From an uncultured Planctomycetales bacterium (GTDB taxonomy: Bacteria; Planctomycetota; UBA1135): 64,000 nucleotides of DNA. The stretch lies in NCBI GenBank assembly GCA_964482495.1, contig CAYZXS010000002.1:20856-84855 (forward strand), given 5' to 3'. Each line of letters begins with the position of its first letter. Position 1 is the stretch's first letter. The notes under the pieces were generated by a model that saw only the letters and a program-made list of their open reading frames with translations, was not told the origin of the DNA and searched no databases. This document shows positions 2,620-34,467 of the stretch, piece by piece. The translations under genes and the position numbers were made by a program.

Positions 2620-3063
2620 CTAATTTCCGCTCAGCCGCCGGTAGCGGGCTTCCGGGGCCTTCCGCTCCATGAGCTCCCGGTAGGGGCCGGGGAGGCGGGT
2701 GGGCTTCCAGTTCTGGACCCCGACGCAGCCCAGCTCGACCCCGCCGGTGGCGCACAGGACCCCGCTCTCCGCGTCGTAGACCTCGTGGCGGAAGCTGAGG
2801 GTGGAGAGGGTCCAGCCGTAGACGACGGTGTGGATCTGGGCCAGGGCGTCGAAGCGCAGCGGAGCCTGGTAGTGGCACTCGGCCCGGATCACCGGCAGCA
2901 TGCGGCCCTCCTGCTCCTCCATGTCCCGGTAGCGCAGGCCCTCGTCGCGCAGCCACTCGGTGCGGCCGAGCTCGAACAGCTCCAGATAGCGGCCGTAATA
3001 AAGCACCCCCATCGAGTCGGTGTCCCGGTAGAGGATGCGGTACTCGGTGCGGTGGCTCTCCAT
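2620..3063 (-). CDS. Acyl-CoA thioesterase, YbgC/4HBT (hotdog fold) family
   Basis: MESHRTEYRILYRDTDSMGVLYYGRYLELFELGRTEWLR... is the typical YbgC-type N-terminus with the catalytic Asp region. The start codon is at 3061-3063. Confidence 0.85.
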   Translation of the reverse strand: MESHRTEYRILYRDTDSMGVLYYGRYLELFELGRTEWLRDEGLRYRDMEEQEGRMLPVIRAECHYQAPLRFDALAQIHTVVYGWTLSTLSFRHEVYDAESGVLCATGGVELGCVGVQNWKPTRLPGPYRELMERKAPEARYRRLSGN

Positions 3064-3115
3064 CCGAGGGATTCTAAGCTGTCGCCGCCGGGCTCTCTCT
3101 GCTAGAAAACGCCGC

Positions 3116-3940
3116 ATGGACGCGCTCGCTCCGCCCGAAGAGACCCGCAATCGCATCGGCGTCGCGGTCGGGCTGTCGATCCTCCTGCCGGGGCTCGGGC
3201 ACCTGGCGGCGGGGCGCAAGGGCTGGTGCCTGGGCTGGTTCCTGGTCTGCCAGGGTTGCCTGTACCTGGGCCTCCAGCTGGCCGGCGCCACCCAGCTCGA
3301 CTACGGCACCTGGTTCCATCTGGGTCAGGTCCAGGCCCTGTTCCTGCTCCTGCCCGAGGTCACCAACCTGCTCGGCCTGCAGGTCGCGGCCCAGCTCTTC
3401 ACCAGCGTCGAGAGCGGCGGCGTCGACCCGACCGCCCTGCCTTGGCGCGACCTCGGCCACCTCCTGAGCGGCGCCTCCGGGGTGCTCGCCGGCTTCGCGG
3501 CCGCCCACGCCGCCGGCCTGGTCCTGGCCCGAGACCTGCCGCGCCCGGGCCGCAAGGTCCACCCGGGCACGGCCGCGCTCGCCACCTTGCTGCTGCCGGG
3601 CGCCGGCCACTGGATCACGGGCCGCCGCTTCAAGGCCTGGCTGCTCGGCGGCACCGTGCTCGGCCTGTTCCTGGTCGGCATGCTGCTCGGCGACTTCGCC
3701 GACTTCGACCGCCAGCGCCACCCCTACTACTGGGCCGGCCAGATGTTCGGCGGCGGCAGCTTCTGGCTGGTCTCCCTGGCCAGCGCCGGCGCCCGCTTCA
3801 CCGAGGTGCTGCGCTTCATGGACGCCGGCCTGCTCTTCACCACCTCCGCCGGGCTGTTCAACGTGGTCGTCGCCTTGGACGCCTACCACCGGGCGCAGCA
3901 CGACTGGCTGGCCGACGACGGACGGGGAGGGGCGGCATGA
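3116..3940 (+). CDS. Polytopic membrane protein of unknown function with an internally repeated LLPGxGHxxxGR motif
   Basis: The ATG is at 3116. The protein has several hydrophobic segments. The motif SILLPGLGHLAAGRKGW recurs as TLLLPGAGHWITGRRFKAW. Confidence 0.7.
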   Translation: MDALAPPEETRNRIGVAVGLSILLPGLGHLAAGRKGWCLGWFLVCQGCLYLGLQLAGATQLDYGTWFHLGQVQALFLLLPEVTNLLGLQVAAQLFTSVESGGVDPTALPWRDLGHLLSGASGVLAGFAAAHAAGLVLARDLPRPGRKVHPGTAALATLLLPGAGHWITGRRFKAWLLGGTVLGLFLVGMLLGDFADFDRQRHPYYWAGQMFGGGSFWLVSLASAGARFTEVLRFMDAGLLFTTSAGLFNVVVALDAYHRAQHDWLADDGRGGAA

Positions 3941-4131
3941 GTGGCGACCTGATCGGCCTGTTCCTGCTGCTGGTGGTCTTCAGCCTGGCCCTGGCCGTGG
4001 TCGTCAGCGGCTACCGGGACGACGACCCGAAGCTCATCCTGCGCGGCGTCGTGCGCCGGTCGCTGAGCTTCCTGGGCGCGGTGGTGGCGATCGGCCTGTG
4101 CTCGCTCGGGGTCAGCTGGTTCCTGTCCTGA
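3937..4131 (+). CDS. Small two-helix membrane protein (64 aa)
   Basis: MSGDLIGLFLLLVVFSLALAVVV...LGAVVAIGLCSLGVSWFLS. It has an ATGA overlap with the upstream stop, which indicates translational coupling. Confidence 0.6.
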   Translation: MSGDLIGLFLLLVVFSLALAVVVSGYRDDDPKLILRGVVRRSLSFLGAVVAIGLCSLGVSWFLS

Positions 4132-4153
4132 GCCGGGCGGCGGCCCTCCTGGC

Positions 4154-5848
4154 TCAGTAACCCAGCTCGCGCAGCGCCCGCGCCAGCTCCTCGCTGAGCG
4201 CCGCTTCGGGCCCGGTGCCGGCCACCGCCTCGGCGGGCCCGAGCTCCTCGCTCCGCCCGGTGGCGACGTCGAAGCGCCGGCCGGCGCTGGACGAGGGGTA
4301 GTAGGTGCTCGAGCTGGTGGTGCTGCCGCGGCGGTCGAAGAGGTCGCGGCTCCAGCCATCGGGCCGGGGCAAGCCGGCCAGCCGCAGCAAGGTGGGGGCC
4401 ATCCAGTGGGCGCCGACGGCTTCGGCGCGGCGCTCGGCGTCGATCTTGCCGGGCCAGACCAGGGCGGCCGGCACTCGGACGACGGCGTCGTGGAAGCTGT
4501 GGCCGTGCTCGAAGGAGCCGTCGTCCCAGAGCTCCTCGCCGTGGTCGGCGTGGAAGGCGAGCAGCGGCGCCGGCGTGGCCTCGAGGCGCTCCCGGAGCCA
4601 GGGCCCCAGCTCACGGTCGAGGGCGGCGACCTCGGCGCGGTAGCGGCGCGCCACCTGGCTCCGGTCGGCCTCGGACAGGTCGAAGAAGCGCCGCCGCTGG
4701 GCCGGGCTGTGCTCGGCCGAGAAGAAGGCCTCCAGGTCGAGGGCGGCGAGCGGATCGGGGCCGAGGTCGCCGGCCCCCGGCGGCGCGTAGGGGAGGTGCG
4801 GCGCCATCAGGTGGACGACCAGGAAGCGCGGCCGGTGGTCGTTCCGCCGCCACCAGTCGCCGGCCAGGCTCAGGGCCAGGCCGGTCTCCTCGCGGCAGCG
4901 CTGATAGACCTCGAAGCCGCGGTCCAGCCCGGTCCAGGGCTCGAGGAAGGGATTCTGGTGCACCATCGCCGTGGCGTAGCCGGCGCTCCGGAACTGCTCG
5001 GCCAGGGTCGGCAGCTCCGGGCGCAGGCCGCGGTAGTCGCGCTGGGACGCGGCCCCGTCCAGGCCGCGCGCCCGGCCCGCGCCGTGGGCGGCGGGGTCGA
5101 GGCCGCTCAGCAGGGAGGCGTAGGCGGGCAGGGTCCAATTCGAGGGCGCCACGGCCGCCGTCCAGAGGCAGCCCTGGCTCAGCAGCTCCTGGAGCTCCGG
5201 CGCCTGCTCCAGGGCGTCGGCGCGGAAGGTGTCGACCGTGACCAGCAGCACGTCGGGCGGCCCCTCGCGGGCCTGCGTTGCCGGGGCCAGCACCGGGCTG
5301 CCCCAGGCCACCTCGGTCTCCGGCGGGGTCAAGGCCCCGGTCTGCTCCCAGCGGAGGCGGAAGAGCAACTCGCCGGCCGGGCCGGGCGGCAGCTCGAGGC
5401 GGAGCTCCTGCCAGGCGCGGGCGGCGGGGTCGAGCGCGACGCTCGCAAGCACCTGGACCCCGTCGGCGCTGCGGCTGCGGACTTCGGCCCGGATCCGGCT
5501 GCGGCCGGTGGTCCGCCGGTCTCCGCTCTGGGGCACCGGGAGCAGGGCGGTGGTGAGCCGCCGCGGCTCGTCGCTGGCCGGGACCGGCGCCCGGATTTCG
5601 CTCGGCACCGTGGCCACCAGGGCGTCGCGGGTGTCGCCGAGCCGGTCCGGCGCCGGCTGCGAGAGCTCGTGGACGTCGCGGCCGAACCAGGCGCTGACCT
5701 GGTGGGCGCGCTTGGCCTGGGCGGCCCCACGCTCGAGCCGGAAGGGGTGGCCCTGGCCGCAGGGGTCCCAGTCGGCGAGGGCGGCTACCTCCGGTTCAGG
5801 GCCGCAGGCCGTCAGCGTCGTCAGGAGCAGGAGGAGCGCGATTCTCAT
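4154..5848 (-). CDS. Sulfatase-like hydrolase/transferase lipoprotein (alkaline phosphatase superfamily)
   Basis: The lipobox is LLLLTTLTAC. The core includes LLVTVDTFRADAL and HLMAPHLPYAPP. The nucleophile region reads SNWTLPAYASLLSG, a Thr-x-Pro type rather than the C/S-x-P-x-R motif of true sulfatases. Confidence 0.85.
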   Translation of the reverse strand: MRIALLLLLTTLTACGPEPEVAALADWDPCGQGHPFRLERGAAQAKRAHQVSAWFGRDVHELSQPAPDRLGDTRDALVATVPSEIRAPVPASDEPRRLTTALLPVPQSGDRRTTGRSRIRAEVRSRSADGVQVLASVALDPAARAWQELRLELPPGPAGELLFRLRWEQTGALTPPETEVAWGSPVLAPATQAREGPPDVLLVTVDTFRADALEQAPELQELLSQGCLWTAAVAPSNWTLPAYASLLSGLDPAAHGAGRARGLDGAASQRDYRGLRPELPTLAEQFRSAGYATAMVHQNPFLEPWTGLDRGFEVYQRCREETGLALSLAGDWWRRNDHRPRFLVVHLMAPHLPYAPPGAGDLGPDPLAALDLEAFFSAEHSPAQRRRFFDLSEADRSQVARRYRAEVAALDRELGPWLRERLEATPAPLLAFHADHGEELWDDGSFEHGHSFHDAVVRVPAALVWPGKIDAERRAEAVGAHWMAPTLLRLAGLPRPDGWSRDLFDRRGSTTSSSTYYPSSSAGRRFDVATGRSEELGPAEAVAGTGPEAALSEELARALRELGY

Positions 5849-6917
5849 TCCGGACGGGCCGGGGCCCGCACCGATGATAGACCCCCCCGGGCCGCCGGGT
5901 CAGCCAGCCGCGCAGCTCGTGCTGCACCAGCTGGAGCAGCAGCGAATCCCCCGGGCGTCCAAGCAGCGCCGACAGCTCGTCCAGGCTCAGGTCCTCCTCC
6001 GCCAGCGCCTGGAGCAGCGGGTCTTCCTCCGGCTCGGCCTCGATCGGGCGGAAGTGGTTGAGGACTTGGACCGGCGACACCGCCAGATGGGCGCCGTCGA
6101 GGACCAGGCTCAGGGGCCCCAGGGAGACCACGGAATCGACCGCCCCGGCCAGGCCGAAGATCTCGCGGCCGAGTTGATTCGCCAACGCGGCGGTGATCAT
6201 GCTGCCCGACTTCTCGGTGGCCTGGACCACGACCACGCCGTCGCATAGGGCGGCGATCAGCCGGTTCCGGCGCGGGAAGTTGCCGCGCATCGGCGCCGTG
6301 CCACAGGGGAACTCGCTGACCACCGCCCCGCCGGCCTCGGTGATCCGGCGGAGGAGGGGGCCGGCGTCGGGCGGGTAGGGCCGGTCCAGGCCCGATCCGA
6401 TCACCGCCACCACCCGGCCGCCGCACTCGAGCGCCCCGCGCATCGCCTCCTGGTCCACGCCGCGGGCCGCCCCGCTCACGACCACCGCGCCCTCGGCGGC
6501 GAAGCCGGCCCCGAAGCGCCGCGCCTGCTCCCGGCCGTAGGCGCTGCAGGCGCGGGCGCCGACGACCGCGATCCTACGCTCGGGCCCCTCGAGGGCGCCC
6601 GGGTCGCCGAGCACCGCCGCCACCGGCGGCGGGTGGTCGAGGTGTCGGAAGCGCTCCGGAAAGCGCGCCGGGTCCGCCTCGCTGAGCAGCGTGGCGTCCA
6701 GTCGTCGCAGCCGCTCCCGCTCCTCGCGCGCATGGGCGGTCATCGCGGCGGGGTCGTCGAGCAGCACGCTGCGCCGCCACGGGAATCGCCAGCGCCGGCG
6801 CGCCGCGACCACCGCCTTGGCCGAGCCGCCCTGACGGAGCAGCTCCCGGATGCCCACCGCGCCGAGCTGCGGGCGGCAGTTCAACGCCAAGAGCGCCAGC
6901 TCCTCTTCCTGGTCCAT
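5796..6917 (-). CDS. dprA: DNA-processing protein DprA (Smf)
   Basis: GARACSAYGREQARRFG...VVSGAARGVDQEAMRGALECGGRVVAVIGSGLDRPYP is the Rossmann-like DprA core. The 3' end overlaps the downstream start by 53 nt. Confidence 0.9.
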   Translation of the reverse strand: MDQEEELALLALNCRPQLGAVGIRELLRQGGSAKAVVAARRRWRFPWRRSVLLDDPAAMTAHAREERERLRRLDATLLSEADPARFPERFRHLDHPPPVAAVLGDPGALEGPERRIAVVGARACSAYGREQARRFGAGFAAEGAVVVSGAARGVDQEAMRGALECGGRVVAVIGSGLDRPYPPDAGPLLRRITEAGGAVVSEFPCGTAPMRGNFPRRNRLIAALCDGVVVVQATEKSGSMITAALANQLGREIFGLAGAVDSVVSLGPLSLVLDGAHLAVSPVQVLNHFRPIEAEPEEDPLLQALAEEDLSLDELSALLGRPGDSLLLQLVQHELRGWLTRRPGGVYHRCGPRPVRNENRAPPAPDDADGLRP

Positions 6918-6973
6918 GCCGGGGAAGACGGAGCGGGCGCTCCTGGGTTACGCGGCTTCCGCCGCGCGCGGTC

Positions 6974-7591
6974 TTAGTGGATGTCGAGCGCCATCAAGGC
7001 CTCGCGGATCGCCGGGAGCATCGCTTCCATGTCCTCGATCGGACCGGCGACCTTGAGGTAGACGTCGTTGTGCAGCGGAGTGCCGGAGATCCCGGCGCCG
7101 ACCAGCATCCAGCCCTCGCGGGGCGGGCCGCCGCCGATGACCTTGGTGGCGACCAGGGTGCCCTTCAGGGTCACCAGCTTGGTCGGGTACTTGCAGCCCT
7201 CGAGCTCCTCGACGGTCATGTTGGCGTCCGCGTCGCCGTCGGCGAACAGGAACTGGCCGGGCGTGGCCCAGCGGTCGAGGTTGGCGTCGACGCCGCCGCC
7301 GACCACGCTCAAGGTGCCGCCGCCGCCGCTGGGGAAGTCCCAGACGACCTCGGCGAACATCACGTCGCGGTCGGACTCGGCCCAGCCTTCCGGCGCCGAG
7401 AAGTGGATCGGGCTCGAGCCGGCGTGCTGGTGGCCATCGTCGGCCGGGGGCGTGGCGGCGCCGGCGCCCGGGTTGGCCGGGGCGGCCGGGCCGGCCTGCG
7501 GGGCGGCCGGGGTGGTGTTGACGGTGGGGGCTTCCGGGGCCCGCATGCAGGCGGCAGCGAGCGGAAGAAGGAGGCAGAGGACCCTTCGCAT
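6974..7591 (-). CDS. Hypothetical lipoprotein
   Basis: The internal ATG (7589-7591) gives MRRVLCLLLPLAAAC, a lipobox. A Pro/Ala linker and a His-rich stretch (DDGHQHAG) follow. I recognise no family. Confidence 0.65.
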   Translation of the reverse strand: MRRVLCLLLPLAAACMRAPEAPTVNTTPAAPQAGPAAPANPGAGAATPPADDGHQHAGSSPIHFSAPEGWAESDRDVMFAEVVWDFPSGGGGTLSVVGGGVDANLDRWATPGQFLFADGDADANMTVEELEGCKYPTKLVTLKGTLVATKVIGGGPPREGWMLVGAGISGTPLHNDVYLKVAGPIEDMEAMLPAIREALMALDIH

Positions 7592-7634
7592 GGCGGGGAG
7601 TCTACTCGCGCGGCCCAAGGCTATCCTGTCCCCT

Positions 7635-8957
7635 ATGAAGGCGCGCGCCTGCCTGATGGCCCTGCCCCTGGTTGCGGCCTCCTGCCTCTCGACCAAGGTC
7701 GAGCTGGACACCGAGGTCTACGCGGACGGCACCGTCCAGCGGCGGCTGGTGGTCACCAGCAGCGACGACGGCGAGGCCGCCGAGCACCCCGCCATGCTGC
7801 GGCTCGGCGGCGCCGGCTACGGGCTGCTTCGGCAGGAGACGGGCAGCTTCGAGGCCTCCGGGGTCTTCGGCCCCGGCCAGCCGATCCCGCCGGCGCTGTC
7901 CTTCCACGCCGATTCGCTCGACCGCAGCGCCCCGGCGGCCGCCAGCCTGGTGATCCAGGACTGGGGCCTGTTCCGGCGGTTCCGCTACCGCGAGCGGCTG
8001 GCTGACGTGGTCGACCCGGACGAGATCCGGCTGGTGGTCGAGGAGGCCGCCGTCCTGTTGCTGGAGAACGCCGACGACACCCTGGAGCGGCTGATCGGGC
8101 CGCACTACCTGCGGACGCGCCTCCACGCCGAGGTCTCGGGCGGGCTCGGCGAGCTGGCGCGGGAGCTGGCGCTGCAGCTGTGGCGGGCGACCGCCCTGGA
8201 GGACTTCGACGAGGAGCGGGTGGTCCGGCGCGCTTGCGCGATTTGCCGGAGGGCCGGGATCCCGGTGGACGCCGACCTGGTGCTGGCGGCCTTCGAGCAG
8301 GGCGAGGAGAGCGAGGCCTACTTCCGGCTGCGCCGCGAGCTCGGGGACTGGGCCGCCGGCATGCTCGAGATCGTCGACGAGGAGGAGACCGGCGGCCGGC
8401 GGCCTGCTTGGCCGGACATGAAGGCCCTGCTCTTCGACGGGCCGCTGGAGCTGGCCTTTCAGGAGGAGCTGGTGCGGCGCTTCGGCGGCGAGCAGGGCCT
8501 GGAGGAGTGGGCGGGGAAGACCTGGACCCGGATCTTCGGCCTGTTCGGCAGCGGCGCCGGCGACATCGACTTCCACCTGCGGGTGCGGCTGCCCGGGGAC
8601 CCGTTGAAGAGCAACGGTTACCTGAGCGGCGACGGCGCCGCCTTCCTCGAGTTCCCGGCCAGCGCCATCTACCCCGGCGGGGCCGGCCTGAGCTCGGAGT
8701 CGGTGCTGTGGGAGCCGGGGGTGACCGGGGCGCTGCCCGGCTTCCGGCGGCTGCCCACCAACGAGCTGGCCGTGCGATGGACCTGGCTGGCGGGGGAGGG
8801 CCCGGCGTCGGCGCCGGACCCGGCGCTGGTGGAGCTGCTGAAGCGCTGCGCGCTGGCGCGGTCCTGGGCGCCCTTCGAGGAGCGGCTGCGGCAGGAGCCG
8901 GCGCGCGCCGAGCGCTGGGCGGAGGCCCTGGCTTGGCTCAAGGGTGAGAAGGATTGA
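7635..8957 (+). CDS. Hypothetical lipoprotein (440 aa)
   Basis: The ATG at 7635 gives MKARACLMALPLVAASC, a lipobox. G/C at third codon positions is strong throughout. I recognise no family. Confidence 0.7.
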   Translation: MKARACLMALPLVAASCLSTKVELDTEVYADGTVQRRLVVTSSDDGEAAEHPAMLRLGGAGYGLLRQETGSFEASGVFGPGQPIPPALSFHADSLDRSAPAAASLVIQDWGLFRRFRYRERLADVVDPDEIRLVVEEAAVLLLENADDTLERLIGPHYLRTRLHAEVSGGLGELARELALQLWRATALEDFDEERVVRRACAICRRAGIPVDADLVLAAFEQGEESEAYFRLRRELGDWAAGMLEIVDEEETGGRRPAWPDMKALLFDGPLELAFQEELVRRFGGEQGLEEWAGKTWTRIFGLFGSGAGDIDFHLRVRLPGDPLKSNGYLSGDGAAFLEFPASAIYPGGAGLSSESVLWEPGVTGALPGFRRLPTNELAVRWTWLAGEGPASAPDPALVELLKRCALARSWAPFEERLRQEPARAERWAEALAWLKGEKD

Positions 8958-25928: not shown

Positions 25929-26540
25929 TCAGCGATGTTCCAGGTCGCTCGCGGTGTCGACGTCGGCGATCGGAGGGAGGAGGGTCGTCCGCAAGTCTGC
26001 GGCCGCCGCCGCGGCGAGGGTGAGCCGCGCCACCTGGTCAGTGCTCCACGGCATGCTCCGGAACAGCGCCGGGTGGGCGCCGCGGGCAGCCAGCAAGGCG
26101 TAGCCGCCGTCGTGGGCCGGCACGAGGGCGAGGTCGGTGCCTGCCGTGGCGCCGCCGGCGGGGGAGGCGAGGTCCGCGGCGGCCCCGCGGATCCGCGCCG
26201 CGTCCAGCTCCGGAGCGTCGGTGCCCGCTACCGCCGCCCACGGCGCGCCCGCGGCCTCGGAGGCCTCGAAGGCCGCCAGCATGCGCGCGCCGAGGTCGGC
26301 GCCGGCCTGCCCGAGCACGCGGTCGGCGCCGGCCAACCATGCCCGGCAATCCTCCACGCGGTCGGCCGGCTCCACCCACAGCCACCGCTGCCACTCCGGA
26401 TCCTCGTAGCCGGCCCAGCAGCGCTCCGCCAGCTGCCGGTAGATCTCGCGCGCTCGCTCCTGCCCGAGGTCCGCCGCCAGCCGGGTCTTCACCGGCCCCT
26501 CCGCCCACCAGCGGGCGAAGACGTGCAGCACCGGCTTCAC
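25929..26540 (-). CDS. DUF2064 / TIGR04282-type nucleotidyl-glycosyltransferase-like protein ('transferase 1, rSAM/selenodomain-associated')
   Basis: The GTG start has a GTGA overlap with the upstream gene. The N-terminus is VFARWWAEGPVKTRLAADLG (KTRL motif), followed by VAGTDAPEL...VPAHDGGYALL. Confidence 0.8.
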   Translation of the reverse strand: MKPVLHVFARWWAEGPVKTRLAADLGQERAREIYRQLAERCWAGYEDPEWQRWLWVEPADRVEDCRAWLAGADRVLGQAGADLGARMLAAFEASEAAGAPWAAVAGTDAPELDAARIRGAAADLASPAGGATAGTDLALVPAHDGGYALLAARGAHPALFRSMPWSTDQVARLTLAAAAAADLRTTLLPPIADVDTASDLEHR

Positions 26541-27082
26541 GCCAGCCCCTCCTCGGGGTCGATGCCGAGGCCGTCCGCGATCCGGTTGATGTAGTTGAAG
26601 TAGGCCACCACCTGGCAGATGTCGCTGACCCCGCGGTCGTCCCAGCCGGCCTCGCGCAGCGCCACCACGTCGCGCTCGCTCATTCGCTCCGGGGCGCGAG
26701 TCAGCTTCTGGGCGTAGGCGCAGGCGGCCTTCTCGGCGTCGCCGAGGGGCGCGTCCATCCAGCCGCGCTCGACCAAGTGCGTCGCCAGCTCCTCTTCTCC
26801 GACCTCGACACGGAGGTCATGGGCGTGGGCCTGCACTCAGTAATGGCAGTCATTGGCCCGGCTGACGACCACCGCCAGGGTCTCGCGCAGGCGCGGCTCC
26901 AGGCTGGAGTCGGCCTGCATCACCGAGGCGTAGAGCCCCATCGAGGCCCGCAGCTGGCGCGGGTTCTGGCCCATGATGCGGACCACGTTCCAGACCCGGC
27001 CGGCGCGCTGGACGGCGTCGGCGTAGATCTTCTTCAGCAGGCCTTCGGCCTCGTCGTCGGGAATCTGGCGGATCCAGGCCAT
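26537..27082 (-). CDS. AhpD-like 'peroxidase-related enzyme' (carboxymuconolactone decarboxylase family) with an in-frame TGA at 26837-26839; candidate selenoprotein (C-H-Y-U)
   Basis: Two same-frame ORFs are split by one TGA. Joined, they read ...LAVVVSRANDCHY[TGA]VQAHAHDL..., placing the TGA at the second Cys of the family's CxxC motif. A hairpin lies 18 nt downstream. The frame continues with good codon bias to a stop that overlaps the next gene's start. Confidence 0.65.
26801..26818 (-). promoter_or_regulatory. Candidate SECIS hairpin for the AhpD-like gene
   Basis: The mRNA reads GACCUC-CGUGUC-GAGGUC, starting 18 nt after the UGA. The stem is 6 bp and the apical loop has G at position 2 and a GU. 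Confidence 0.5.
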
Positions 27083-27845: not shown

Positions 27846-28889
27846 ATGAAGACGACCCCGCTGTCCATCGCCGCGCTCGCGCTCCTGGCTCCGGCCGCCG
27901 CCGCCCAGGAGATCTTCAGCGAAGCGGACTACGACGCCAACGCCCGCCAGGTGGTCGACCGCGACTACTTCCCGGTCTTGGACCACCCCGAGATGAGCTC
28001 CGCGGCCGCGGCCGAGGAGTTCCTCGGCGACGACGAGCCGGTGATCGGCGTGGTCCTGAACGGCGACGCCCGCGCCTACCCGGTGCCGGTCATGGGCAAG
28101 CACGAGCTGGCCAACGACACGGTCGGGGGGGTGCCGGTCGCGGTCAGCTGGTGACCGCTGTGCCAGACGGCCATCGTGTATGGCCGGACCCTGGGCGAGC
28201 GGGTGCTGGACTTCGGGCACGAGGGCGTGCTCTACCGCAAGTCCTTCATGATGTACGACCGCCAGACCGAGTCGCTGTGGCTGCACGTCACCGGCCAGGC
28301 GCTGAAGGGCGAGCTCAAGGGCGCCCAGCTCGACTTCCTGCCGGTGGAGGTGGTGCCGTGGTCGGATTGGCGCGAGCGCTACCCGGACACCAAGGTGCTG
28401 GTGGGGGAGAAGGCCGAGGGTTTCATGGGCGACTTTCAGCTCTGGAAGCACACCGCCGACTACGGCCTCAGCGTCGGCGAGGGCCGCGAGGTGGCGCTGT
28501 TCGAATTCGAGATGCTGGTCCGGGTTCCGGTCCTGAACGACCGCGGCGGCCCGCGGCCGCTGGTGGTGGCCTACGACCCGCGCCGGACCACCGCCGCCGC
28601 CTTCTTCGCCCGCGTCGAAGGCGTCGACGGCGGCGTGGAGCTGCACTTCGAGGCGGTGGTGGACCCCGAGTACCCGAGCCCGCTGATGCGCGACGTCGAG
28701 ACCGGCAGCCTGTGGGACCGCGGCGGCGGCCGCTGCCTAGCCGGTCCGCTCGCCGGGCGGGCGCTCGAGCGCGCCGTCTCGGTGCCGTGGCTGAATCGCC
28801 GCTGGCAGGGCTTCTTCCCCGAGGGCCGGCGGGTGACGCTGCCGCAGCTCGAGAGCGACGCCGATTCCGAGGACGAACGGGAAGATTGA
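27846..28889 (+). CDS. DUF3179-family secreted protein with an in-frame TGA at 28152-28154; candidate selenoprotein (U-P-L-C)
   Basis: The signal peptide is MKTTPLSIAALALLAPAAAAQ. Same-frame ORFs flank a single TGA: ...GGVPVAVSW[TGA]PLCQTAIVYGR.... As I recall it, the family motif is (T/S)-(Y/W)-C-P-L-C. A hairpin lies 14 nt downstream. Confidence 0.65.
28169..28185 (+). promoter_or_regulatory. Candidate SECIS hairpin for the DUF3179 gene
   Basis: The mRNA reads GGCCAU-CGUGU-AUGGCC, starting 14 nt after the UGA. A possible lower stem pairs CCAG with CUGG. Confidence 0.5.
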
Positions 28890-28935
28890 GCCTGGATTCG
28901 CCGTCACAAGCAGCGTGCCGGGTCGAAGCCCGGGT

Positions 28936-29244
28936 ATGAGAGGGATTCGAAAGGGGATTCTGAGAGTTTTGGTGGCCTGCGCGCTGCTGACCGGGGGGGT
29001 CGGCGCGGCGCAGGCCACCGCCTCTTTCGACCACCACCCCGCCGCCTGGGCCGCGGCCTCGGAGCAGCGGGTGCACCCCGGCGGCCTGCGGACCTCGAAG
29101 ATCTTCGACGGGGCGGAGGACGAACTGGAACAATATCCCGTAGGCATCCACGCCATCCCCCGCGAGTCCGGGCCGAAGACCTGGACCGCGACGATGCCTT
29201 CCCCCGCGCCAAGCGGAAGTACCGCAGCTCCGGCTGGTCCCTGA
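28936..29244 (+). CDS. Small secreted protein of unknown function (102 aa)
   Basis: MRGIRKGILRVLVACALLTGGVGAAQA is a clear signal peptide. The stop lies 4 nt before the arsM-like start. Third-position G/C is high in the middle of the ORF but weaker at both ends. Confidence 0.45.
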   Translation: MRGIRKGILRVLVACALLTGGVGAAQATASFDHHPAAWAAASEQRVHPGGLRTSKIFDGAEDELEQYPVGIHAIPRESGPKTWTATMPSPAPSGSTAAPAGP

Positions 29245-29248
29245 ACCG

Positions 29249-30343
29249 ATGGTCGCCGAAAGACTCGAATCGCTAGACCCCGCGTCCGTCACCGACGCGG
29301 TCTCCGCCACCTACGCCGAAGGCGCCAAGGCCGTGCAGCCCGAGCTGTGCTGCCCGGTGGATTACGACGCCCGTTTCTTGGAGGTCCTTCCCGCCGAGGT
29401 GCTCGAGCGCGATTACGGCTGCGGCGATCCGTCGCGGTGGCTGCGCCGGGGCGAGACCGTGCTCGACCTGGGCTCGGGCGGGGGCAAGATCTGCGCCATC
29501 GCCAGCCAGGTGGTGGGGCCGGAGGGGAGCGTGATCGGGGTCGACATGACCCCCGACATGCTCGAGCTGGCGCGGCGTTGGCAGCCGGAGATCGCCGGGC
29601 GCATCGGCTGGGACAACATCGATTATCGCCGCGGCCGGATCGAGGATCTGGCCTTGGACCTGGACCAGCTCGACCTGTGGCTGAAGGCCAACCCGATCGA
29701 CGGCCTGGCCGGCTACGAGGCGCTGCAGGCCGAGACCGAGCGCCTGCGCCGCGACGCGCCGATGGTGGCGAGCGGCAGCGTCGACGTCGTGGTCTCCAAC
29801 TGCGTGCTCAACTTGGTGGCGCCGGAGCTGAAGCGGCAGCTCTTCGCCGAGACCTTCCGGGTGCTCAAGCCCGGCGGCCGAGCGGTGATCAGCGACATCG
29901 TCAGCGACCGCGAGGTGCCGCTGGCGCTGCAGAAGGACCCGGAGCTGTGGGCGGGCTGCGTCAGCGGCGCCTACCAGGAGGCCGCCTTCCTCGAGGCCTT
30001 CCGCGCCGCCGGCTTCCACGGGGTCGAGGTGCTGGTGCGGCAGGCCGAGCCGTGGCAGGTGGTCGAGGGCATCGAATTCCGCTCGGTCACGGTGGCGGCC
30101 TACAAGGCACCCGAGGGCGGCTGCCGGGATCTCGGGCAGTCGGTGGCCTACCGCGGCCCCTACGCCGAGGTCACCGACGACCACGGCAACCGCTTCCCGC
30201 GCGGGGAGCGGGTGGCGGTGCGCGAGAGCGCCTTCGCCCGCCTCGGCCGCGAGCCCTACGCCGGCGCCTTCACTCGCTTCGAGGCCGACGGCGGCTCTCC
30301 TGATTCCGACGCCGGCGCCGACGCCGACGGGGGCTGCTGTTGA
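29249..30343 (+). CDS. arsM: ArsM-type SAM-dependent (arsenite) methyltransferase
   Basis: The SAM motif is VLDLGSGGGKIC. Four Cys are placed as in ArsM: PELCCP, YGCGDP, VVSNCVLNL and WAGCVSGA. The C-terminus is GGCC. Confidence 0.85.
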   Translation: MVAERLESLDPASVTDAVSATYAEGAKAVQPELCCPVDYDARFLEVLPAEVLERDYGCGDPSRWLRRGETVLDLGSGGGKICAIASQVVGPEGSVIGVDMTPDMLELARRWQPEIAGRIGWDNIDYRRGRIEDLALDLDQLDLWLKANPIDGLAGYEALQAETERLRRDAPMVASGSVDVVVSNCVLNLVAPELKRQLFAETFRVLKPGGRAVISDIVSDREVPLALQKDPELWAGCVSGAYQEAAFLEAFRAAGFHGVEVLVRQAEPWQVVEGIEFRSVTVAAYKAPEGGCRDLGQSVAYRGPYAEVTDDHGNRFPRGERVAVRESAFARLGREPYAGAFTRFEADGGSPDSDAGADADGGCC

Positions 30344-31416
30344 GCCCGGGCGGCAGCGACCTCGGCCCCGCGCCGGCCTTCCGTGACGCCGCGGAGGACT
30401 TCCCCTACGTCGCCAAGACCCAGGTCGAGACGCTGCAATTCAACCTCGGCCGGCTCTGCAACCAGGCCTGCCTGCATTGCCACGTCGACAGCTCCCCGGC
30501 GCGCAGCGGGCCGGAAGACAACGCCTCGGCGGCCCTGATCGACCAGGTCCTCGAGCTGCTGCGCCGCGAAGACGGTCTGCGGGTGCTGGACCTCACCGGA
30601 GGCGCCCCGGAGCTGAACCCGCACTTCCGGCGCCTGGTCGAAGGCGCGCGCCGGCTCGACCGCACCGTCTACGTCCGCCACAACCTGACCGTGCAGGAGG
30701 AGCCGGGCCAGGCCGACCTGCCGGCGTGGTTCGCGGAGCAGGGGGTGGTGCTCTACTGCTCGCTGCCGTGCTACCTGGAGGACAACGTCGACGCCCAGCG
30801 CGGCGACGGCGTCTACGCCAAGAGCCTGGCGGCGCTGCGGCGCTTGAACGACGCCGGCTTCGGCCGCGGCGACGGCCTGGAGCTGAAGCTGGTCTACAAC
30901 CCGCTCGGCCCGGCGCTGCCGCCCTCGCAGGCCTCGCTCGAGGCGGACTACCGCCGGCGGCTGGCCGAGGACCACGGCGTCGTCTTCGACGCGCTGCTCA
31001 CGATCACCAACCAGCCGATCCACCGCTTCCGCGACGCCCTGGCCCGGTCGGAGCAGCTCGACCCCTACCTGCGGCTGCTCAAGGACCACTTCAACAAGGC
31101 CACCCTCGGCGGCCTGATGTGCCGCAGCGCGGTCTCGCTGCGCTGGGACGGCCGGCTGTACGACTGCGACTTCAACCTGGTCCAGGGGCTGGAGCTGCGC
31201 GGCCCTGGCGGCGATGCCATGAGCCTCGCCGACCTGCTGGCGGCCCCGGCCGGCCTGGCGTCGTTCCGCGAGCTGGCCGTCGCCACCGCCGAGCACTGCT
31301 TCGCCTGCACCGCCGGCTGCGGCTCCAGCTGCGGCGGCGAGCTCAGCGCCGAGTCGGTCCAGGACCTCGAGATTCCGAGTCACAGGCTCTCCTGTGCCCC
31401 GAACTTCGAGGTGTGA
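30340..31416 (+). CDS. arsS: Radical SAM / Cys-rich-domain protein (ArsS / TIGR04167 type)
   Basis: The TTG start has a TTGA overlap with the arsM stop. The radical SAM motif is CNQACLHC. The C-terminal Cys-rich domain is MCRSAVSLRWDGRLYDCDFN...HCFACTAGCGSSCGG, with Cys (not Sec) at the position that carries Sec in some homologues. Confidence 0.9.
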   Translation: MSPGGSDLGPAPAFRDAAEDFPYVAKTQVETLQFNLGRLCNQACLHCHVDSSPARSGPEDNASAALIDQVLELLRREDGLRVLDLTGGAPELNPHFRRLVEGARRLDRTVYVRHNLTVQEEPGQADLPAWFAEQGVVLYCSLPCYLEDNVDAQRGDGVYAKSLAALRRLNDAGFGRGDGLELKLVYNPLGPALPPSQASLEADYRRRLAEDHGVVFDALLTITNQPIHRFRDALARSEQLDPYLRLLKDHFNKATLGGLMCRSAVSLRWDGRLYDCDFNLVQGLELRGPGGDAMSLADLLAAPAGLASFRELAVATAEHCFACTAGCGSSCGGELSAESVQDLEIPSHRLSCAPNFEV

Positions 31417-31542
31417 TTCTCGCGCCGGCCACAGTCACTCTCCCACGGCGACGCTACCTCGGCTGAGCTCGGGGCCGCCGGCGCGGCGTTAGGCTGCCGA
31501 TTCAAGCCGTCACGGGTGGCCGCCTGGGACGAAGCCGAGGAC

Positions 31543-32250
31543 ATGACACGAGTACTGCTGTTGCTGCTGATCGCCTCGGCGGTCTCGGCCGTGCTCTGGC
31601 TGCCGACCGAGCGGCTGCCCGAGCTGGGCGAGTGGCTGCGAGGCCAGGGCTTGGCCGGAGCTCTGCTGATCGGCGCCGGATACGCTGCCGCCACCGTGCT
31701 GATGATCCCCGGCTCGTTGATCACCCTGGTGATCGGGGCCGTCTACGGCCCTTGGATGGGGCTGGCGCTGGTGTCGCCGGCGAGCGTGCTGGGCGCCACC
31801 CTGGCCTTCCTGCTCGGTCGCGGCGCCTTCCGGCCGGCGATCGACCGGCGCATGGCCGGCAGTGCGCGCTTCCAGGCGCTGCAGGCGGCGATGGCCAAGG
31901 AGGGCCTGAAGATCCTGACCTTGGTGCGGCTGTCGCCGGTGTTCCCCTTCACCGTGGTGAACTACGCCTTCGGTCTGACCCGGATCCCGCTGCGCCACTA
32001 CGTGCTCGGCTCCTTCGTCGGCATGCTGCCGGGGACGCTGATGTACGTCTACCTGGGTTCGACCGTCGGCGACCTGGCCGACCTGGGCGCGGGCGCGCCG
32101 GAGGGTGGCGCCGCCGGCGCGGCCCTGAAGTGGCTCGGCTTGGCGGCGACGGTGGTCGTGACGGTGCTGATCACCCGGACCGCCAAGCGAGCGCTGGCCG
32201 AGGCCGCGCCCGAGGTCCTCGAGCAGCGCTCCGGCGGCGCGGAGGTCTGA
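31543..32250 (+). CDS. TVP38/TMEM64 (DedA-superfamily, SNARE-associated) membrane protein
   Basis: The ATG at 31543 gives MTRVLLLLLIASAV.... The sequence includes IPGSLITLVIGAVYG...LTLVRLSPVFPFTVVNYAFGLT. A GTG at 31516 is an alternative start. Confidence 0.8.
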   Translation: MTRVLLLLLIASAVSAVLWLPTERLPELGEWLRGQGLAGALLIGAGYAAATVLMIPGSLITLVIGAVYGPWMGLALVSPASVLGATLAFLLGRGAFRPAIDRRMAGSARFQALQAAMAKEGLKILTLVRLSPVFPFTVVNYAFGLTRIPLRHYVLGSFVGMLPGTLMYVYLGSTVGDLADLGAGAPEGGAAGAALKWLGLAATVVVTVLITRTAKRALAEAAPEVLEQRSGGAEV

Positions 32251-32251
32251 G

Positions 32252-33778
32252 GTGGCCCAGCCGATCCTCCTCGCCGACGACGACCACGACCGGGAGCTGC
32301 TCCAGCAGGTGGCGCCCGAGGACTGGCGGCCGCCGGCGCCGGCCGACCGCTATGACCTGGTGGTGCTCGGCGCCGGCACCGCCGGCCTGATCGCCGCCGC
32401 CGGCGCGGCCGGCTTGGGCGCCAAGGTGGCCTTGGTGGAGCGCTCGTTGATGGGCGGCGACTGCCTCAACCACGGCTGCGTGCCGAGCAAGGCGATCCTG
32501 CGGGCGGCCAAGGCGCTCGGCGCAGCGCGGCGTGCGGAGGAGCTGGGCCTGCGCGTCCCCGAGGCCGAGGCCGACTTCGCCGCGGTCATGGAGCGGATGC
32601 GGCGACTGCGGGCCGGCATCGGCCAACACGACGGCGCCCAGCGTTACACCGAGCTGGGAGTGGACGTGTTCTTGGGCGACGGCCGCTTCACCGGGCGCGA
32701 TCGGCTGGCGGTCGAGTGCCACGGCGGCGCGTCCGTCTCGCTGCGCTTCAAGCGCGCCGTGATCGCCACCGGCGCCCGGCCGCGGGTGCTGGAGGTGCCC
32801 GGCCTGGCCGAGGCCGGCTACCGCACCAACCACACGCTCTACACCCTGACCGAGCTGCCGCATAGCCTGGTGGTGGTGGGGGCGGGGCCGATCGGGGTCG
32901 AGATGGCGCAGGCCTTCGCCCGCTTCGGCAGCCAGGTCTCGATCGTCGGCCTGGATGAGCGCGTCTTGCCGCGCGAGGACCCCGACGCCGCGGCCATCGT
33001 GCGGCGTTCGCTGGAGCGCGACGGCGTGCGCTTGGAGCTCGGCGCCGGCCTGAGCGAGGTGCGGGTGGAGGGCGGCCGCAAGCGGGTCGTGGCCGCGCGC
33101 GGGGAAGAGCGGGTCGAACTCGCCGGCGCCGAGCTCCTGATGGCGGCCGGCCGCGCCGCCAACGTCGAGGGGCTCGGTCTGGAGTTGGCAGGGGTGGACT
33201 TCGACCGCCGCGGGGTGCGGGTGGATGACTTCCTGCGTACCACCAACCGCCGGATCTTCGCCGCCGGCGACGTCGCCAGGCGGTGGCAGTTCACCCACGC
33301 CGCCGACGCCATGGCGCGGATCGCGCTGCGCAACGCCTTCTTCTTCGGCCGCGCCCGAGTCAGCGCCCTGACCATGCCGTGGTGCACCTACACCATGCCC
33401 GAGGTGGCCCACGTCGGCCTCGACGAGCGCGAGGCGGCCGAGGCCGGGGTCGGGCTGGAGTCGCTGCGCATGGACTTCTCCGAGGTCGACCGCGCCCGGC
33501 TGGACGGCGAGACCGAGGGCTTCGCCAAGCTCGTGTTCGAGAAGCGCAGCGGCCGCTTGCGCGGCGCCACCGTCGTCGCGCCGCAGGCTGGAGAGCTGAT
33601 CGGGGCGGCGCTGGTGGCGGTGAGCAAGCGCTTGAAGGTGGGGGAACTGAGCGGCGTGATCCACCCCTATCCGACGCAGGGGGCCGTCTGGGGCCGGCTC
33701 GGCGACCTGGCGATGCGGCGCAAGCTCACCCCCGGCGCCGCCCGATTGCTCCGCGGGCTGATCCGGATGCGGCGCTGA
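32252..33778 (+). CDS. FAD-dependent pyridine nucleotide-disulfide oxidoreductase, mercuric-reductase-like
   Basis: The start is a GTG. The FAD motif is YDLVVLGAGTAGLIAA and the redox disulfide is GGDCLNHGCVPSK. A dimerisation domain is present. There is no N-terminal HMA domain and no C-terminal Cys pair. Confidence 0.85.
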   Translation: MAQPILLADDDHDRELLQQVAPEDWRPPAPADRYDLVVLGAGTAGLIAAAGAAGLGAKVALVERSLMGGDCLNHGCVPSKAILRAAKALGAARRAEELGLRVPEAEADFAAVMERMRRLRAGIGQHDGAQRYTELGVDVFLGDGRFTGRDRLAVECHGGASVSLRFKRAVIATGARPRVLEVPGLAEAGYRTNHTLYTLTELPHSLVVVGAGPIGVEMAQAFARFGSQVSIVGLDERVLPREDPDAAAIVRRSLERDGVRLELGAGLSEVRVEGGRKRVVAARGEERVELAGAELLMAAGRAANVEGLGLELAGVDFDRRGVRVDDFLRTTNRRIFAAGDVARRWQFTHAADAMARIALRNAFFFGRARVSALTMPWCTYTMPEVAHVGLDEREAAEAGVGLESLRMDFSEVDRARLDGETEGFAKLVFEKRSGRLRGATVVAPQAGELIGAALVAVSKRLKVGELSGVIHPYPTQGAVWGRLGDLAMRRKLTPGAARLLRGLIRMRR

Positions 33779-34467
33779 TGCGGATCTCCGTCATCATCCC
33801 GACCCTGGAGGAAGAGGCCGCGATCGGCGGCTGTGTCGCCGCGGTGCGCGCCCTGGCGGGGGACTGGGAGGTGGTGGTGGTCGACGGCGGCAGCCGCGAC
33901 CGGTCCCTGGAGCGGGCGGCCGAGGCGGGCGCCGACCTGAGCTTGCTGGCGCCGGCCGGCCGCGGCCACCAACTGGCGGCCGGGGCGGCCGCCGCCACCT
34001 CGCAGGCGCTGCTGTTCCTGCACGCCGATTGCCGTCTGCCGGCCAGCGCCGCCGCTGAGGTCGGCGCGACCTTGGAGGACTCGCGCTGGTCCGGCGGCGC
34101 CTTCGCCCTGCGCCACGAGTGCGGCCCGGCCGCTGGTCCGCTCGCCCGCCGCCTGGTGCGGATCGCCGACCGCCGCTCGCGCCGGGCCCGGCTTCCTTAC
34201 GGCGACCAGGCCCTGTTCACCCGGCGGGAGACGCTGGAGCGCGCCGGCGGCGTGCCCGAGCAGCCGCTGATGGAGGACCTGGAGCTGTCCCGGCGGCTCG
34301 ACCGCCTGGGGCCGATCCGGCGCCTCCCGGCCGAGGTCCGCACCGACGCCCGGCGCTTCGAGCAGCGGCCCGTCCACTCCTTCCTGTGCTGGATGAGCTT
34401 CCCGCTGCTCTTCCGGCTCGGGGCCTCCCCCGAGCGGCTGGCCCGGTGGTACGGTTCCCAGCGATGA
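33778..34467 (+). CDS. GT2-family glycosyltransferase, TIGR04283 type ('transferase 2, rSAM/selenodomain-associated')
   Basis: It has a TGATG overlap with the upstream gene. The sequence includes ISVIIPTLEEE...VVVVDGGSRDRS...GRGHQLAAGA...LLFLHADCRLP. Confidence 0.85.
   Translation: MRISVIIPTLEEEAAIGGCVAAVRALAGDWEVVVVDGGSRDRSLERAAEAGADLSLLAPAGRGHQLAAGAAAATSQALLFLHADCRLPASAAAEVGATLEDSRWSGGAFALRHECGPAAGPLARRLVRIADRRSRRARLPYGDQALFTRRETLERAGGVPEQPLMEDLELSRRLDRLGPIRRLPAEVRTDARRFEQRPVHSFLCWMSFPLLFRLGASPERLARWYGSQR

Follow-up and report, generated by a model that had tools for sequence, protein, structure and literature searches.

An AhpD-like gene with a very probable in-frame selenocysteine codon beside an arsenic-type gene cluster of an uncultured planctomycete

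The gene described here lies on the minus strand of a 64,000-nucleotide stretch of DNA from an uncultured Planctomycetales bacterium (assembly GCA_964482495.1, contig CAYZXS010000002.1, positions 20,856 to 84,855), which is referred to below as the window. Two short open reading frames (ORFs), listed mechanically at 26837..27082 (81 aa) and 26537..26836 (99 aa) and separated by a single TGA, together make up a single intact gene, which codes for a small AhpD-like redox protein, and the internal TGA very probably encodes selenocysteine (Sec). The gene is an unannotated member of a selenoprotein family established since 2005. Its reading frame is single and conserved across species, the UGA is conserved as well, and the hairpin that follows it shows covariation between its two arms.

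One reading frame across a conserved TGA

The frame begins with ATG at 27082 and reads MAWIRQIP...SRANDCHY over 81 codons (27082..26840, ending in N-D-C-H-Y) up to the TGA at 26839..26837. It then continues with VQAHAHDLRVEVGEE...GIDPEEGLA over another 99 codons (26836..26537, stop included) to a second TGA at 26539..26537, giving a joined product of 181 aa. The G+C content at third codon positions (GC3) is 0.95 upstream of the internal TGA and 0.94 downstream, and therefore both halves look coding in the joined frame. An initial annotation, made from the letters of the window, had already described two ORFs sharing a frame and split only by the TGA, had joined them into an AhpD-fold 'peroxidase-related' protein and had pointed to the AhpD-like proteins as a known bacterial selenoprotein class. 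The coordinates, the full-length family match given below and the literature (PMC1088965, PMC2398784, PMC13188914) bear out all three statements.

When the joined protein was searched with Cys written at the TGA position, it matched the NCBIfam family TIGR01926 ('peroxidase-related enzyme') end to end, with 132.1 bits against a cut-off of 81.8 and residues 3-177 aligned to positions 2-176 of the 178-position profile. The Pfam CMD domain PF02627 (41.4 bits, cut-off 23) and the AhpD core domain were also matched in the profile searches, while each half searched singly fell below every family threshold. The nearest solved structure is 6k40, DR1765 of D. radiodurans, with an E-value of 2.4e-27 over residues 9-177. 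It is followed by 2oyo and 3c1l (1e-24 to 1e-27 together with 6k40), 2pfx and 2prr, all five lying between 1e-20 and 1e-27. The Pfam match and the sequence matches to these structures place the protein in the all-helical CMD/AhpD domain. The TGA column corresponds to the second Cys of the N-x-C-x-Y-C-x-x-x-H motif in 6k40, 2oyo and 3c1l, and E67, C79, Y81, U82 and H86 follow the spacing E-11-C-x-[HY]-C/U-3-H of PA0269 and of Mycobacterium tuberculosis AhpD (MtAhpD; PMC3141380). The initial annotation had put the TGA on the second Cys of the CxxC motif, and the solved Cys homologues as well as an orthologue with TGT at this site (locus L090, see below) agree with it.

The five solved relatives are of the same length and fold family, and their motif aligns column for column with that of the window protein. 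However, DR1765 and the structural-genomics relatives are Cys forms whereas the window gene is the predicted Sec form, and the D-L-R-x-E-V segment, which would encode the hairpin described in the next section, is missing from the solved Cys relatives; 6k40 has A-L-R-E-F-S in its place.

A scan of one genome per species yielded more than 596 relatives, and the best 80 orthologous loci were analysed. The homologous codon is TGA in 80 of these 80 best species-level loci, which span at least ten phyla (Planctomycetota, Chloroflexota, Gemmatimonadota, Acidobacteriota, Actinomycetota, Latescibacterota, Verrucomicrobiota, Marinimicrobia, Calditrichota, Myxococcota and others). In every one of them the frame stays open for 97-128 codons after the TGA, and the mean identity to the window protein is 50% in the N-terminal half and 48% in the C-terminal half. 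In addition, the identical 546-nt gene, TGA included, occurs in six contigs assembled independently from different samples. Given these six identical assemblies and the TGA in all 80 orthologues, the TGA is therefore no sequencing error.

Could the TGA be a true stop, arising from a nonsense mutation or from a sequencing or assembly error, and leaving a pseudogene with a decaying downstream half? The gene callers do report separate 81-aa and 99-aa ORFs, and the Sec machinery is unseen in the window. Against this stand the identical assemblies, the invariant TGA and a downstream part that is open, as well conserved as the upstream part and equally rich in GC3. An artefact from a reference common to the orthologues is excluded as well, since their assemblies are independent and come from many studies. 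We consider this explanation effectively refuted, with next to no chance of being correct. A sequencing error at the TGA and a degraded C-terminal half were two of the dangers to which the initial annotation had pointed; the first is excluded by the six assemblies and the second is not seen.

Another interpretation is that there are two small genes, one for an 81-aa CMD fragment and the other for a 99-aa protein starting at the next GTG, possibly assembling non-covalently. The codon after the TGA is indeed GTG in the window, a possible start, and the databases hold many 'proteins' of about 100 aa that begin there. Yet just 7 of 79 sequences have a potential start codon at this place, the other 72 having ACG, ATT, ATC, ATA, ACA or similar codons. 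If the protein were split, its N-terminal piece would retain only one Cys and C79 would be parted from H86, whereas the solved homologues are single chains. A simple gene boundary would also leave the covarying hairpin and the invariant TGA unexplained, and we give two separate genes scarcely any credence. We return to a single gene with a decoded UGA as the preferred reading.

The public gene calls split the gene in two, and the database entry P0001 is its 99-aa C-terminal piece. Of the 120 best database matches, 70 cover only the C-terminal part, from just behind the TGA onwards, and 10 only the N-terminal part, up to C-x-Y. Another 21 are 'full-length' with Trp at the site; Cys is found there in only 3 and Ser in 2. 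In the Trp entries the DNA has TGA and the stored sequence is not reproduced under translation table 11, so that these entries reflect gene calling with code 4, and reading them as Trp homologues was dismissed. Trp at the Sec site is thus a systematic database artefact, which masks selenoproteins as Trp variants. The Trp-bearing entries include P0002, P0003, P0005-P0007, P0010-P0014 and P0016-P0024, with loci L087-L089, and come from short contigs.

A true Cys orthologue is P0004, which has TGT at the site (locus L090). On the frequency of the two forms, a comparison that the initial annotation had proposed, TGA is found in all 80 species-level loci and Cys in 3 of the 120 database matches. 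P0004 is the only close Cys-form orthologue examined (L090 930-2889, L091 36-1603). It stands in an operon-like row with an ArsR-type HTH protein, MerT/HMA and a second small CMD protein, and its stem-forming codons are partly degraded (GACCUU ... GAGGGA). A different kind of entry is P0041 (236 aa, from a 3.2-kb ENA contig). It shares 98% identity with the C-terminal half of the window protein over its first 64 residues and then runs on into unrelated sequence, which probably reflects a chimeric assembly or a rearrangement in a strain variant.

A SECIS-type hairpin after the UGA

The initial annotation had noticed the hairpin GACCUC-CGUGUC-GAGGUC downstream of the UGA, and it is present as described. 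It has a 6-bp stem and a 6-nt loop, begins exactly 18 nt past the UGA and is coded by D-L-R-V-E-V. We examined it as a candidate selenocysteine insertion sequence (SECIS) in an ungapped alignment of 79 sequences, with the 3′ arm slid by 1-3 columns as control. The comparative evidence for the hairpin proved strong. Across the six proposed pairs, 91.1% of the cells are paired, compared with 28-55% in the slid controls.

Columns 24 and 37 pair as C-G in 54 sequences, as U-A in 14 and as U-G in 3, and the observed covariation was reached by 0 of 500 shuffles. The combination is GAC/GU in 51 sequences and GAU/AU in 10, while GAC/AU never occurs. The U-A variants combine a synonymous change of Asp from GAC to GAU with a change from Val (GUC) to Ile (AUC) on the opposite arm. 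RNAalifold, run unguided, recovers the inner four pairs. In variants with D-F-R-x-E-S, read by eye, a 6-bp stem is held with its register shifted by one base (GACUUC/GGAGUC).

The codons that make up the hairpin are also skewed. For the hairpin Leu, CTC is used in 68 of 71 cases (31% in the remainder of these genes). All 74 codons of the loop Arg are CGG or CGT (39% in the remainder), CGC and CGA being entirely avoided, and the hairpin Val is GTC or GTT in 51 of 53 (54% in the remainder). The structure thus dictates which codons are used in this region. The family loop pattern is CGKGNN. The distance from UGA to loop in the window gene is 24 nt, and the usual model of the bacterial SECIS places about 16-37 nt between them. 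The SECIS check suggested by the initial annotation thus turned out positive, with a small G-containing loop and compensatory changes. Published bacterial SECIS elements, including those of AhpD-like genes, likewise have a small apical loop with a G shortly after the UGA (PMC1088965).

The redox centre and the decoding of the UGA

We propose that the UGA at codon 82 would be decoded as Sec by SelB-GTP-Sec-tRNA(Sec), with SelB recruited by the mRNA hairpin (6-bp stem, loop CGUGUC) that starts 18 nt after it. The product would possess a C79-x-Y-U82 redox centre with a relay of Glu67, Tyr81 and His86. The U82 selenolate would be the exposed nucleophile. Its target would be either a peroxide or an oxidised partner (a sulfenate or disulfide of the peroxiredoxin type), and the Se-S bond formed would then be resolved by Cys79.

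In MtAhpD the second Cys, Cys133, is exposed at the bottom of the cleft and is the residue that becomes disulfide-linked to AhpC, and Cys130 is partly buried (PMC6626918). Since Cys133 of MtAhpD attacks AhpC, the analogy makes U82 the probable attacking residue and C79 the probable resolving one. Sec would thus most likely sit at the attacking position rather than, as the initial annotation had it, at the resolving Cys. MtAhpD, a lipoamide-dependent AhpC reductant, shares with the window protein the CMD fold, the CxxC motif and a Glu/His relay with identical spacing, but the sequence identity is very low and MtAhpD has His in place of Tyr81. No ahpC or lipoamide-system partner was identified adjoining the gene. 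For the nearest solved relative, deletion of DR1765 renders D. radiodurans sensitive to H2O2, and complementation needs the CxxC motif (PMC8945050). What U82 and C79 do in catalysis, and which substrate the protein acts on in the cell, is inferred here; our best guess is that the protein may be a thiol/selenol peroxidase or a peroxiredoxin reductase.

Several points weigh against Sec decoding and against the residue roles proposed here. Folded alone, the hairpin is no more stable than shuffled sequences (z -0.85 for 76 nt and +0.22 for 49 nt) in DNA of 73% G+C; because of this, the support for a SECIS element is wholly comparative. The p-values of the codon skew ignore phylogeny and treat non-independent species as independent. 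The genes for tRNA-Sec, selA, selB and selD are absent from the window and from 10 kb past each of its ends, a search that covered about 84 kb of a multi-megabase genome (the source scaffold is 189.6 kb) and carries little weight either way. An Rfam scan of the window at gathering thresholds yielded two tRNA-Ser genes only. As no sel genes were found in the searched sequence, we infer, rather than observe, that the source organism itself is capable of inserting Sec. Finally, in AhpD of B. thailandensis the first Cys was reported to be the more important one, with the roles reversed (PMC6626918), and the assignment of attacking and resolving residues is therefore not universal in the family.

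The Sec machinery does accompany an orthologue elsewhere. In an Actinomycetes metagenome-assembled genome (locus L076, JANMJY010000279.1), an orthologous C-H-Y-TGA gene (3670-4188) lies between tRNA-SeC (2649-2742) and selB/selA within a sel locus at 2649-8608, in which selB occupies about 5712-7330 (TIGR00475, 354 bits) and selA 7331-8608 (TIGR00474, 513 bits). The window also holds a second candidate selenoprotein gene, a DUF3179 gene that is divergent from the AhpD-like gene and 1 kb away. Its in-frame TGA falls on the first Cys of a CPLC motif, and 16 nt downstream there is a hairpin, GGCCAUC-GUGUA-UGGCC, with a CGUGU loop much like that of the AhpD-like gene. The DUF3179 gene of the related locus L097 is split at this position too, and DUF3179 is listed as a UxxC/T selenoprotein family (PMC13188914). 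The host planctomycete is likely to use Sec, and at least two of its selenoprotein genes would lie within 1.3 kb.

Could the UGA instead be translated as an amino acid other than Sec? Trp or Cys might be inserted by a near-cognate tRNA, or the code might be reassigned (table 4 or 25). The 21 full-length database entries with Trp at the site could be taken in favor of this, as could the failure to find Sec genes in the window and 10 kb on each side. Nevertheless, these entries have TGA in their DNA, fail under table 11 and stem from code-4 gene calling. TGA is also the usual stop in the window, where it ends 43 of 64 high-GC3 ORFs, and therefore it is not reassigned here. The site is the catalytic Cys of the CxxC motif, at which Trp or Gly would abolish the redox chemistry. 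Non-Sec read-through is also opposed by the conserved SECIS-type hairpin with its typical small G-containing loop, by the orthologue inside the selC-selB-selA locus and by the fact that this is a recognised selenoprotein family (PMC13188914). We regard it as very unlikely, and Sec remains the strongly preferred assignment for codon 82.

The AhpD-like proteins (COG2128) with a CxxU motif were found as a new selenoprotein family in the Sargasso Sea in 2005, with 27 sequences (PMC1088965), and in 2008 they ranked fourth in abundance among the selenoprotein families of the GOS data (299 sequences, 37 samples; PMC2398784). A 2026 review lists 'AhpD-like protein, TIGR01926, CxxU' along with DUF3179 and the TIGR04167 radical SAM protein (PMC13188914), and a database of the same year has a browsing page for the AhpD-like family (PMC13326102). 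The window gene shares with the known members the family TIGR01926, the predicted Sec at the second position of CxxC and the small G-containing loop of the SECIS. There is no essential difference from them, except that the pairing with a TIGR04282 gene beside an ArsS cluster is lineage-specific.

The AhpD-related family NF041238 (AhpD_rel_CFYUT, 'hypothetical protein 1' of the Sargasso Sea) likewise has Sec at the second position of C-x-Y-U. Membership in it was ruled out by the score, 57.3 bits where 175 are required; the alignment is confined to the C-terminal domain of this model of 357 positions, and the two are separate families.

General knowledge of selenoproteins is unchanged by this gene, and what is added is modest: all of the 80 best species-level orthologues prove to be fixed for the Sec form, the SECIS lies within the coding sequence and now has an explicit record of covariation and of the coding constraint D-L-R-x-E-V in 79 sequences, the Trp artefact is identified, and the clade-specific placement beside the ArsS cluster is documented. 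The main value lies in annotation. Dozens of orthologues are stored as 'peroxidase' fragments of about 100 aa, as C-x-Y stubs or as proteins with a spurious Trp, and all three wrong forms can be repaired with the C-x-Y-U pattern together with the SECIS encoded by D-L-R-x-E-V.

Neighbouring genes and the arsenic-type cluster

The features of the AhpD-like gene and its neighbours are collected in Table 1. Immediately downstream lies a DUF2064 gene, whose start overlaps the stop of the AhpD-like gene in a GTGA, as the initial annotation had stated. A 4-nt overlap is also found in the related planctomycete locus L096, and in L097 there is a 2-nt gap. The further claim that coupling to the DUF2064 gene requires read-through of the UGA is too strict. 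Because a GGAGG motif stands 7 nt before its GTG, the DUF2064 gene can probably start without a ribosome passing the UGA.

Table 1. Coordinates in the window of the AhpD-like gene, its elements and the neighbouring genes.
Feature	Position	Strand	Remarks
AhpD-like (TIGR01926) gene, predicted selenoprotein, complete	26537..27082	-	181 codons + stop; ATG 27082..27080, stop TGA 26539..26537
In-frame UGA, codon 82, predicted Sec (C79-H-Y-U82-x-x-x-H86)	26837..26839	-	TGA in 80/80 loci; Cys in solved homologues
Cys79 codon TGC, first residue of CxxU motif	26846..26848	-	C79 invariant in family alignment
AhpD-type relay, Glu67, Tyr81 and His86	Glu67 26884..26882; His86 26827..26825	-	E67 and Y81 at least 90% conserved; His codon CA invariant (79 sequences)
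Bacterial SECIS-type hairpin	26801..26818	-	5′ arm GACCUC 26818..26813, loop CGUGUC 26812..26807, 3′ arm GAGGUC 26806..26801
TIGR04282 (DUF2064) 'arsenosugar biosynthesis glycosyltransferase'	25929..26540	-	TIGR04282 153.7 bits, cut-off 134; Pfam DUF2064
GTGA overlap of AhpD-like stop and DUF2064 start	26537..26540	-	stop 26539..26537, GTG start 26540..26538
GGAGG, Shine-Dalgarno-like motif	26548..26552	-	7 nt upstream of DUF2064 GTG; read from sequence
DUF3179 gene with in-frame TGA	27846..28889	+	TGA 28152..28154 (VAVSW-U-PLC); second candidate selenoprotein, divergent, 1 kb away
ArsM-like methyltransferase	29249..30343	+	below cut-offs of all ArsM equivalog models
ArsS radical SAM protein	30340..31416	+	TIGR04167 377 bits, cut-off 300
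VTT/DedA protein	31516..32250	+	
FAD-dependent disulfide oxidoreductase	32252..33778	+	NF004991 654 bits, cut-off 620
TIGR04283 glycosyltransferase	33778..34467	+	196 bits, cut-off 182

On its divergent side, the AhpD-like gene faces a gene for a trypsin-like protease, the DUF3179 gene and then the ArsM-like/ArsS cluster (29249..34467), and the set of neighbours is labelled 'arsenosugar biosynthesis' in NCBIfam. In the arsenosugar pathway, the radical SAM enzyme ArsS breaks the adenosyl C-S bond of SAM (bioRxiv 10.1101/2024.02.01.577332). The ArsS family includes selenoproteins, and the ArsS of the window is a Cys form (C-terminal ...CTAGCGSSCGG). In this lineage the AhpD-like gene forms a two-gene unit with the TIGR04282 (DUF2064) transferase gene beside the ArsS/ArsM-like cluster. 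The pair facing the ArsS cluster is kept in the closest relatives, L096 (80% identity, C-terminal half) and L097 (66%). In the related planctomycete contigs L096 and L097, the cluster of ArsS, TIGR04282, TIGR04283, ArsM-like, VTT and FAD-oxidoreductase genes is syntenic.

This placement raises the question of how the gene relates to TIGR04169, the arsenosugar-associated peroxidase-like proteins, with which the initial annotation had proposed a comparison. The small CMD proteins of TIGR04169 typically accompany ArsS (TIGR04167), and the window protein is likewise a CMD protein beside an ArsS/TIGR04282/TIGR04283 cluster. The ArsS-type neighbourhood is thus real; membership in TIGR04169, on the other hand, was ruled out, with 19.1 bits against a cut-off of 120. 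The window protein, a member of TIGR01926, exceeds the TIGR04169 protein in length by about 70 residues. Unlike TIGR04169, the AhpD-like orthologue is away from such a cluster in at least 76 of the 80 other species.

The wider comparison points in the same direction. The pair together with ArsS was not found in L098 or in the other 79 species, and neighbours in the window such as the DUF3179, ArsM-like and ArsS genes are absent from the 80 orthologous loci. The DUF2064 partner, kept in L007, is the sole window neighbour found among these 80 loci, and a search for conserved neighbours in 78 orthologous loci found none common to more than 8 species. Because no neighbour is shared and those of the window are missing in these loci, a family-wide functional tie to the arsenosugar cluster was rejected. 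Taken as a whole, the AhpD-like family is a stand-alone redox gene, and the link to an arsenic cluster is local to this planctomycete clade. It is conceivable that within the clade the AhpD-like selenoprotein was recruited as a dedicated redox partner of the ArsS/ArsM-type organoarsenical pathway, replacing the TIGR04169 protein, but we regard this as unlikely. If it were true, the stop/start overlap could make the expression of part of the arsenical pathway depend on the selenium supply.

A promoter scan near the gene found no sigma-70-like site, which is uninformative for a planctomycete. In three Candidatus Actinomarina single-cell genomes (L066, L072 and L081), a tmRNA gene, spanning about 4514-4857, precedes the AhpD-like TGA gene by approximately 1.2 kb. 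Strain variants of the window locus (L001 and L003) appear to differ by approximately 170 bp in the stretch that separates the DUF3179 and methyltransferase genes (about 28890-29250), an apparent indel in the population; in L001 the gene coordinates are shifted and a small ORF of 102 aa is called in place of the 90-aa one.

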